Under the pieces are notes generated by a model. The model was not told the origin of the DNA, did not search any database, and was given only the letters and a program-made list of their open reading frames with translations. Positions 60,817-62,897 of a DNA stretch of 64,000 bases are shown in pieces. Source of the DNA: Heterodontus francisci (Eukaryota); the NCBI RefSeq assembly GCF_036365525.1, contig NC_090411.1, forward strand, positions 32,194,432 through 32,258,431, in the 5' to 3' direction. Within the stretch, counting starts at the first letter, position 1. Every line of letters begins with the position of its first letter. Both the position numbers and the translations under genes were made by a program.

Positions 60817-62897
60817 CTACTCTGCCCCCAAGGTGTACTTGTTGAACAGGTATTCAGCTGTGCCATTTTGGGGGGCACCTAGACGATGCAGGTTGGTGAT
60901 GTGGTCCCCAAGTTTCTTGATGGTCTTGACTTGTTTTTCCAAGTAGTGAGTCTCTAGAAAGTCACACAACTGGAAGAAAATTAAATCAGATGCTGTTTAT
61001 TGTGAATAAAGGACTATCTGCTTTGAAACTGAAAAATAATCTCGTTGTCAAGGCATGGACCACTCAGAACAGATTTTGTTCCAATTTTGAGAACATAAGA
61101 ATGCAAGATATTGGAATAAGAGTAGGCAATATGGTTCCTTGAGCCTGCTCCGCCATTCAGAACGACCACGGTTGAACTTCTACATCACCTCCACTTTCCT
61201 GCCCTATGCCTTGATTCCCTTAGTGCCCAAAAATCTATCCATCTCAGTCTTGAATATCCTCAACAACTGAGCGTCCATAGAGAATTCACAACAGTCTTAG
61301 TGAAGAAATTTCTCCTCATCTCGTCCTAAATGGTTGACCCCTTATCCTGAGATTATGACCCCTAGTTCTAGACTCTCCAGCCAGGAGAAATAGCCTCTCA
61401 GCATATACCCTTCAAGCCCTCTAGGAATTTAACACAATTCTTTAAAATCACCTCTTATTCTTCTAAATTCCAAAGAATATAGTCCCAGTCAACCCAATCT
61501 TAAAAGGTCCTTTCTACTCAGTTGTATGACCTAACTGCTGGCATCTACCAAATACATTTCCTCCCTCAAAAAACCTAGTGTTTTAGAGCCTCATTGCCGA
61601 CACTAATGGGGCCATGATTGGTCAGTCGCAAAATAGCTACATTTCCCCTTGTCCATATCAAGTAAAGCAGTCAGTTTACTTGTCCAGATGAAGCAGTAAG
61701 TCAAAGTGAGTGGAATGACTTCAAACATTCAGTTCGGACGGGATTTGAGAACACAATGAATGCTCCAATTTAATGTCCAATCCTCTGGTATGAAAGCTAC
61801 TGAGCCATGTAGGATCAGCTGAGCTTACAACGAAAAGTGAAGAATGGGAGTCTGGAGATTTTGAACCCCTGACAATCCCTGGTAACAAGGTTCTCAGAGA
61901 TGGTCACCACATCAATTTTGGGTAAAAATCTAAATCACTTTTCACCAATAATTCCCAAAATCCTGCATACTTAAATTATTATTTCTTTCTGAATACTTAC
62001 ATGAGGGTCAGTTCTATCCTTGGCCAGTTTGTATAGCTCCAGCAGGCTTTGGTTAATGTTCTTCTCCAATTGTAGAGCACATTGCATTGCCTGCAGACCA
62101 TTGTCCCAGTCGTCTTGCTCTGGTTTCTAAAGAGAAAAGTATAGCCTGGTTAGTGGTCAGATTTACATACAAAGGAAGCATGAAATTTACAGGATTCCAT
62201 GGCATCTAGTTATATGGTTATCATTAGATAGCCTCTTGTCCATTTTTAGCTAGTTTCTTTGTTTTTTTTGGGGGGGGGCAGTGGAATATGCAGAGGTTGA
62301 GACGATGGGCATTAACGCTGGAGAATGAAGTCTTTTCCACTTTGCTTATAATTGGACACAAACATCTTAAGAACCACATGCACAGTTCCAGCCCAATGGG
62401 CATCAGAGATAATGCAGATCGCCAGTAATGAAACACATCAGAGATAAGAAAAAGAGAAAATAGAGACAGCACAGGGCTTCTGGTACCAACATGCTTATAA
62501 CCTAATCTCAGAAGAGCATTCCTTCTTGCTCTGGTGTGATGTTTCCTTATCATTCTTTAATTAGATTCAATATTGTGTACTGAATAGAGAGCAGTTTTGT
62601 TCAGGGATTCTTCCAGAAGCTGGGTGTTAAAACAACAGGAGCTAATAACCAGTTTGCTTTAGACACTTTGAAACAGGTAAGTAGACACTGGACACAACAT
62701 TTGGCGTACAACGAAAGCACATTCCAAACAGTTGCTTCCTACATGCTAACCTTGACATCTTGCAGGGCGATGCGGCCTCCACGCTGATTCTGGAATTTCA
62801 TCAGCTTCTCAGCTTGCTCTTGCTCCTTGTCTGACTTCTTTTTGAAGAACTTCATAAAGTTGTCCAAAGCAACATCACCTCGGTCAAAATAATATGA
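60817..62897 (-). CDS. Divergent ferritin subunit, exons 2-4 (exon 1 not found in window, presumably beyond 64000); ferroxidase centre degenerate
   Basis: Minus-strand exons 62897-62751 ([49 protein letters not shown]), 62126-62001 ([42 protein letters not shown]) and 60969-60817 ([50 protein letters not shown]). All GT-AG, 147/126/153 nt, no stops; AATAAA on the minus strand at 60737-60732. Missed by the ORF track. Confidence 0.92.
61090..61500 (-). mobile_element. CR1 3' fragment in intron 3 of the minus-strand ferritin
   Basis: Reverse complement of a CR1 3' region (gagcctgctccgccattca..., gacccctagttctagac). Confidence 0.65.

Follow-up and report, generated by a model that had tools for sequence, protein, structure and literature searches.

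The window, a stretch of 64,000 nucleotides of contig NC_090411.1 (C41) of Heterodontus francisci, holds the end of a tandem array of M-type ferritins that extends over C41:~31.64-32.25 Mb. Eight plus-strand copies occupy 1023..54071, with their iron ligands intact and some copies broken, and they precede the gene studied here, a minus-strand ferritin that is thus the ninth of the window and convergent with the array, as an earlier note on this DNA had described. Features beyond the window are given in extended coordinates, which continue the window numbering past 64000; the C41 position equals 32194431 plus the coordinate. The last two array copies (46080-54071) are broken by stops near 47840 (exon 4) and 52990 (exon 2) and by a frameshift in the exon 1 at 49254. 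No IRE was found in the array copies of the window. A second ferritin array lies at C41:26.36-26.84 Mb, and the copies read there carry K62.

The studied gene has the ferritin pattern of four coding exons and three introns, and an additional non-coding upstream exon is indicated. On the minus strand, exon 2 (62751..62897) encodes G44, K57, K58, K61, E62, E64 and Q65, exon 3 (62001..62126) encodes E107 and Y118, and exon 4 with the stop codon (60817..60969) encodes C130, D131, E134, K140, Q141 and K147. These three exons are intact with good splice sites, as previously noted: every intron is phase 0 and bounded by GT and AG, and the reading frame stays open. Residues are numbered after the macaque H chain P0139, which agrees with an ungapped match to human H chains. 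Intron 1 measures 2228 bases, of which 62898..64000 fall in the window, and leads to exon 1 past the window end (extended 65126-65626, C41:32259557-32260057). Exon 1 is also intact, and its coding part (65227-65126) retains R22 together with E27 and Y34, the two residues whose status the earlier note could not see. Upstream of the conserved ATG (65227) there is a second one in frame, at 65245, which gives six extra residues, an N-terminal extension private to this genome and missing from every other full-length orthologue. Joined together, and with the six-codon extension from 65245, the four exons match exactly the database protein P0092 ('ferritin heavy chain-like').

Transcription was followed in contigs from four runs (X1-X4) of one sample in one study, which carry no record as RNA and are guessed to be so; their spliced joints alone were used, not their depth. 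Intron 1 is bridged in four of four runs and introns 2 and 3 in three of four, including the acceptor of exon 4, exactly at the predicted sites. The contigs extend from 65626 to 60492, which places the 3' UTR at 60492..60816 by coverage. The polyadenylation signal proposed earlier does exist, as AATAAA at 60737 and again at 60587, but the contigs continue past both sites. In all four runs they also carry 70-216 further bases past the splice acceptor, corresponding to the upstream exon, whose place in the genome was not located. Two exonic differences between contigs and genome are listed, at window 60606 and extended 65494, both in UTRs and none coding. A bacterial promoter scan of this vertebrate gene, a type of scan irrelevant to the host, gave nothing. 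A pseudogene or an assembly artefact is rejected by the exact identity of the exons with P0092, by the spliced contigs and by the presence of orthologues in sharks and rays.

The leader contains eight upstream ATGs besides the in-frame one. No IRE was detected with Rfam in the 399 transcribed bases before the ATG, the further upstream exon of at least 70 bases lying outside that stretch. Rfam finds two IREs in 134 kb, neither of them in the transcribed leader: one belongs to a neighbouring gene (84479-84514) and the other lies on the opposite strand (66799-66832). A search with exon 4 yielded 135 matches among 150 scored, mostly in the C41 arrays at ~31.6-32.25 Mb and 26.4-26.8 Mb; the exon matched itself at 106 bits, and no other match exceeded either 82 bits or 80% identity. 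The gene is single-copy, and an ordinary array copy is rejected because the search returned no near-identical copy and the protein belongs to a separate clade.

Three further ferritin genes lie beyond exon 1. The first is an intron-containing, plus-strand gene at extended 70490-80644 (C41:32264921-32275075), head-to-head with the studied one, whose GC-rich first exon encodes a long leader rich in Arg and poor in acids. In the orthologues from a sawfish and two other sharks, the leader is 45-58 residues long, with 7-9 R/K and no D/E, and these proteins together make up a clade (100/100) distinct from mammalian FTMT; judged from sequence, this looks like a predicted mitochondrial-type ferritin that evolved independently in elasmobranchs. 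Between it and the studied gene, a decayed, frameshifted ferritin exon 1 on the plus strand (extended 66799-66995) bears an IRE-like hairpin with the loop CAGUCC (37.6 bits). It is head-to-head with the studied gene, with whose exon 1 it shares 79% complementarity along 34 bases, and it may once have served the leader-bearing gene as a cytosolic first exon, since abandoned.

The second neighbour, at extended 84377-82733 on the minus strand and 19 kb from the studied gene, is a single-copy M-type gene with a canonical IRE (84479-84514) and all iron ligands, and has shark and ray orthologues (support 100/98). The third, ~51 kb away, is the plus-strand lower (L) subunit gene (extended 116425-122887), with K27, T61, K64, Q65, Q107 and S140; no IRE was found in it with Rfam, and in the tree it joins the lower subunits of chimaera and teleosts and not mammalian L. 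This genome has its H-type gene on another contig (C14), within 50 kb of a bestrophin, while on C41 there are genes for a RuvB-like protein (30.5 Mb) and a glycogen synthase (38.4 Mb). We take bestrophin to mark the FTH1 neighbourhood, and the RuvB-like gene and glycogen synthase to mark that of FTL; by these neighbours the studied gene therefore sits at the M/L locus and not at the FTH1 locus. M and mammalian L have been reported to be orthologous, in passages of PMC4117605.

The product, a protein of 175 residues, carries a ferritin domain (PF00210, Pfam 122 bits) with a four-helix bundle and a short E helix. Its model (pLDDT 90.8) superimposes on human H at 0.8 A over 166 columns (Foldseek), so that the predicted structure is that of a normal ferritin subunit. 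In phylogenetic analyses, the shark and ray sequences of this protein form a clade with 100/100 support on a long stem (0.23-0.25). The best tree places this clade outside the H clade (99/96) and separate from the lower-subunit clade (98/96 and 100/100), in a weak grouping (84/73) with coelacanth, frog, teleost M and mammalian L. For the sister of this clade, four groupings were put to AU tests and none was rejected (p = 0.35, 0.17, 0.51 and 0.47), sisterhood with the array having p = 0.17. A duplicate of FTH1 is disfavoured by synteny, the bestrophin neighbour belonging to the H-type gene on C14, with AU p = 0.47 for sisterhood with H. Identity with the shark L chain is rejected, as a separate lower-subunit gene is present and K27/Q107 are absent, with AU p = 0.51 for common ancestry with the lower-subunit clade. 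On these comparisons, the gene is a separate ferritin paralogue of sharks and rays, and its clade is old.

Orthologues are 75-90% identical across species. The gene evolves ~1.5-fold faster than the IRE-bearing M gene, the identities being 86 versus 91% to sawshark and 79 versus 86% to sawfish. Comparisons between paralogues, in which the values average both branches and the pair with the IRE gene is saturated, give dN/dS of 0.17-0.26, versus 0.17-0.24 in other old pairs; a recent pair of array copies gives 0.52. In these paralogue comparisons, the dN/dS near 1 that the earlier note named as refuting was not seen. No chimaera or bony-vertebrate orthologue appears among the best 120 of 1762 and of 2976 hits, which is weak evidence of absence. 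Shark ferritin arrays have been published, with ovary-specific expression reported in passages of bioRxiv 10.1101/2024.09.09.611499, and they also appear in passages of PMC13214024. The passages and supplement matches of these two sources do not distinguish the studied paralogue, and the word 'ferroxidase' occurs neither in the main text of PMC13214024 nor in the five supplements covered by a term search. Literature searches, with most subscription papers outside their reach, did not find the paralogue either, and it is apparently undescribed so far.

At the residue level, the protein has K57, K58, K61, Q65, Y118 and K140 and keeps E62, E107, Q141, C130, D131 and E134, all as listed in the earlier note, which had presented the six substitutions as departures from the array. 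For the array copies this is correct at E57, Q58 and E61 (8 of 8 copies of exon 2) and at E140 (7 of the 7 copies of exon 4 read), and nearly so at H65 (7 of 8), the broken copy at 52864 having Q65; in this last copy H65Q has arisen independently. Among 202 aligned ferritins, 172 have E/H/E at 61/65/140 and two have Q65 with E61/E140, whereas K61, Q65 and K140 occur together in 15, all from sharks or rays (13 shark and 2 batoid species). A comparison set of 44 ferritins contains K61 in none, K140 in none and Q65 in one. The triad recurs once among 165 further proteins, in P0360, which is 46% identical, has C27/F62 and is not an orthologue.

Conservation was counted in 13 full-length orthologues, two of the 15 being omitted for aberrant first exons. 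All 13 have K57, K61, Q65 and K140, so that the triad is conserved across sharks and rays, and all likewise keep E27, Y34, E62, E64, E67, E107, E134 and Q141. The catalytic signature of H and M chains is therefore retained at E27, Y34, E62, E107 and Q141 and altered at H65, E61 and E140. Y118 is found in 12 orthologues and H118 in one, K147 in 11, C130 in 8 and D131 in 4, the other nine having N, E or G at position 131. Since K58 occurs in one orthologue of 13, being private to this genome, and K57 is common in ordinary ferritins too, the run of three lysines overstates the conserved change; of the charge reversal claimed earlier, K61 and K140 are the fixed part. Outside the centre, D5, H6, D94 and I110 (13/13) and G44 (11/13) are specific to the clade.

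Comparison with known ferritins sets this combination apart. The bony-vertebrate M chains and shark M-type 'FTH1b' arrays share the locus, the four-exon structure and 71-76% identity with it, but M chains keep E61, H65 and E140, whereas the studied gene is single-copy, on the strand opposite to the window array and in its own clade. The fish and amphibian lower subunit (salmonid P0255, frog L PDB 1rci) is alike in sharing the cluster in this genome, and its teleost members have K61 and Q65 in common with the studied protein, the shark member Q65 and N171; the lower subunits of teleosts and of this shark nevertheless carry K27 and Q107, in place of which the studied protein has E27 and E107, plus K140, and its identity to P0255 is 50%. 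Mammalian FTL resembles it as a predicted non-catalytic partner from the same syntenic region with a lysine near the centre, but L-type chains have K62, Y27, G65 and an acidic nucleation patch that includes E61 (passages of PMC12022971), where the studied protein has E62, E27 and K61. The mammalian FTL or FTHL17 type does not apply, since E62 and not K62 is present in 13 of 13 orthologues, nor does the FTL nucleation patch, with K57 and K61 in all 13 and E64 kept. FTHL17 and sponge HdF2 lack ferroxidase activity, as measured for the former and predicted for the latter, and atypical ferritins are mostly without an IRE (passages of PMC7760355 and PMC8395497). Both of these proteins carry E62K, whereas the studied protein keeps E62, is ~70% identical to H and has an independent origin.

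The roles of the altered residues are known mainly from mutants of human mitochondrial ferritin. H65 is a named ligand of the ferroxidase centre (passages of PMC7557750 and PMC6929972). Passages of PMC12022971 describe E61 as exporting Fe3+ and anchoring the mineral core, E61A lowering mineralisation from 79 to 6.9 uM/min and inhibiting Fe3+ release; E140 is assigned to Fe2+ entry, E140A slowing Fe2+ binding ~4-5-fold; D131A abolishes rapid oxidation; and movement of H65 triggers product release in the proposed model. All inner-surface variants of that study retained Fe2+ oxidation at the centre, and the classic dead mutant carries both H65G and E62K (passages of PMC6929972). Among the papers listed by a literature search for H65Q, E61K, E140K, H65A or H65G, we found no data from natural or single-mutant animal ferritins. 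By homology with the residues so characterised, the three fixed changes strike the set of entry, trigger and export positions, two of them by charge reversal, while the static ligands stay.

The best reading of this pattern, which we hold at about even strength, is that the subunit neither turns over nor mineralises iron and would co-assemble with other chains, damping mixed cages. K61 and K140 would repel Fe2+ where the centre opens towards the cavity and would probably form pairs with the carboxylates still present, making a plug like the one that K62 provides in L chains, at other positions; such pairing would explain why the carboxylates are retained. In cages with M or H chains, the subunit would dilute catalytic and nucleation sites and neutralise the cavity wall, and it would be produced independently of IRP control. 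The drift of D131 (4 of 13) and the loss of H118 (1 of 13 kept) would be expected if iron entry were relaxed. The salmonid lower subunit P0255, which also has K61/Q65, speaks for the damping subunit; against it are the retention of E62, unlike in the classic dead mutant with E62K, and the invariance of five of the six named ligands, when most L-type chains examined replace E27, E62 or E107. The genome already has two ligand-altered lineages, the lower subunit and the K62 array (C41:26.7 Mb), which leaves a third damping subunit in need of a separate niche. The non-ferroxidase modulator proposed in the earlier note came through the refuting tests that were run, but it stays an inference, because the centre goes on working in the single mutants E61A and E140A (passages of PMC12022971) and measurements on H65Q were not found. 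Its suggested co-assembly specifically with array products is unsupported: the M-type gene with an IRE, 19 kb off, is an equally plausible candidate as partner of the studied subunit.

Because the centre stayed competent in all inner-surface variants, the dead mutant includes E62K and mutant data were not found, two readings in which the site still handles metal retain some probability. The invariance of five of the six ligands suggests that the site could still bind metal. It is possible, though doubtful, that the site is locked, its carboxylates binding one or two ions (Fe, Zn, Mn) and, for want of the entry, trigger and exit residues, turning over once or never, as a tight trap or a structural site. 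E27, Y34, E62, E107 and Q141 are invariant in 13 of 13 orthologues where L lineages replace some of them, and E61A mitochondrial ferritin oxidises Fe2+ with slow product release (passages of PMC12022971), both of which fit such a site; two added positive charges flank it, however, the site-A histidine is lost and D131 has become N, E or G in nine of 13.

Another alternative starts from charge. Over residues 54-68 the net charge is +1 in the studied protein versus -2 in the array and H and -3 in shark L, and several invertebrate ferritins whose centres are normal have 0 to -1; helix B is mildly, not strongly, basic. The whole chain has charge 0 (-3 to 0 in orthologues) versus -7 to -9 in three M-type neighbours and -3 in shark L. 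At four core cavity sites taken from PMC11838010 (61/64/140/147), the studied protein scores +2, as does shark L, whereas H scores -4 and the array and the M-type neighbour -2 each. The earlier description of the helix as more basic than either H or L type hence applies to helix B, but at these cavity sites shark L is just as basic.

These sites are also those of an engineered carrier, HFn(+), in which human H with cavity acids E61, E64, E140 and E147 changed (E61K, E64R, E140K, E147K) plus three tail lysines still assembles cages and was loaded with siRNA (passages of PMC11838010; the variant is repeated in passages of PMC13103152). That the carrier altered the same sites supports the view that the changes in the shark protein face the cavity. 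By this analogy, the shark protein would be a natural positive-cavity ferritin, kept since before the shark/ray split, whose cages hold an anion (nucleic acid, phosphate or polyphosphate) and not iron; K61, K140 and K147 are natural here, and the tail is shorter. This is the anionic cargo of the earlier note, and we regard it as an unlikely, minority reading. HFn(+) is artificial, has E64R and three tail lysines and keeps H65, and it took seven changes, truncation and disassembly by pH to carry ~1.5 siRNA per cage (passages of PMC11838010), whereas the shark protein keeps E64 and E67 in 13 of 13 orthologues and is about neutral overall. K147 is moreover ordinary in M chains, K58 is private, the lower subunit likewise scores +2, and the loading route is not known.

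More unlikely still is a slowed yet working ferroxidase serving detoxification and not storage, with Q65 as a weak ligand. Five of the six ligands are kept, the inner-surface single mutants retain a competent centre (passages of PMC12022971), and Q65 does occur with E61/E140 in the two ferritins mentioned above; but in the sharks and rays three changes are linked, two of them charge reversals rather than alanines, and in fish lower subunits Q65 accompanies ligand loss. It is decidedly improbable that the subunit is an iron-independent adaptor whose role lies on the outer surface, routing cages to a compartment or partner, with the inner changes switching iron chemistry off. The clade-specific D5, H6, D94, I110 and G44 lie outside the centre, as such a role would have it, and there is a precedent in FTHL17, non-catalytic and partly nuclear (passages of PMC7760355), but a conserved targeting extension is lacking, the six-residue extension being private to this genome. 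A relaxed or decaying duplicate, to which the ~1.5-fold faster evolution and the eight upstream ATGs might point, is scarcely credible given the open frame, the triad fixed in sharks and rays, the splicing and a paralogue dN/dS of at most 0.26.

If the subunit is indeed damping, sequence comparison would place it among the non-catalytic ferritins, with FTHL17, sponge atypical ferritins and L chains as the known kinds, but reached by a different route. In the non-catalytic vertebrate ferritins known so far, it is fixed ligands that are lost (K62, or K27/Q107), and the shark lineage instead alters the mobile entry, trigger and export residues. With the fixed ligands kept and the mobile residues altered, this lineage therefore puts to a natural test the recent model in which Fe2+ entry and Fe3+ release are separate, and lets one ask what role is left to a ferritin subunit that does not oxidise or nucleate iron. 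Were the cavity functionally cationic, the protein would be a naturally evolved scaffold for delivering nucleic acids. Genome papers count the shark ferritin clusters as many similar 'FTH1b' copies, but within these clusters there are at least five distinct types.

Other features of the genome were recorded in passing. Processed-looking ferritin copies that cross exon junctions lie at C36:29.97 Mb, C4:30.04 Mb, C34:29.71 Mb and C37:24.90 Mb; the M-type array is the source of three and the H gene of the fourth, and those from the array suggest its expression in the germline. Several GC-rich copies resembling non-LTR retrotransposons, with open frames of up to 1252 codons, flank the L gene (extended 105-110, 135-147 and 205-211 kb). 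The first non-ferritin gene noticed on that side is marked by a minus-strand PH-domain exon in a CpG-rich stretch (extended ~223.7-224.1 kb), which resembles the PHLDA family.
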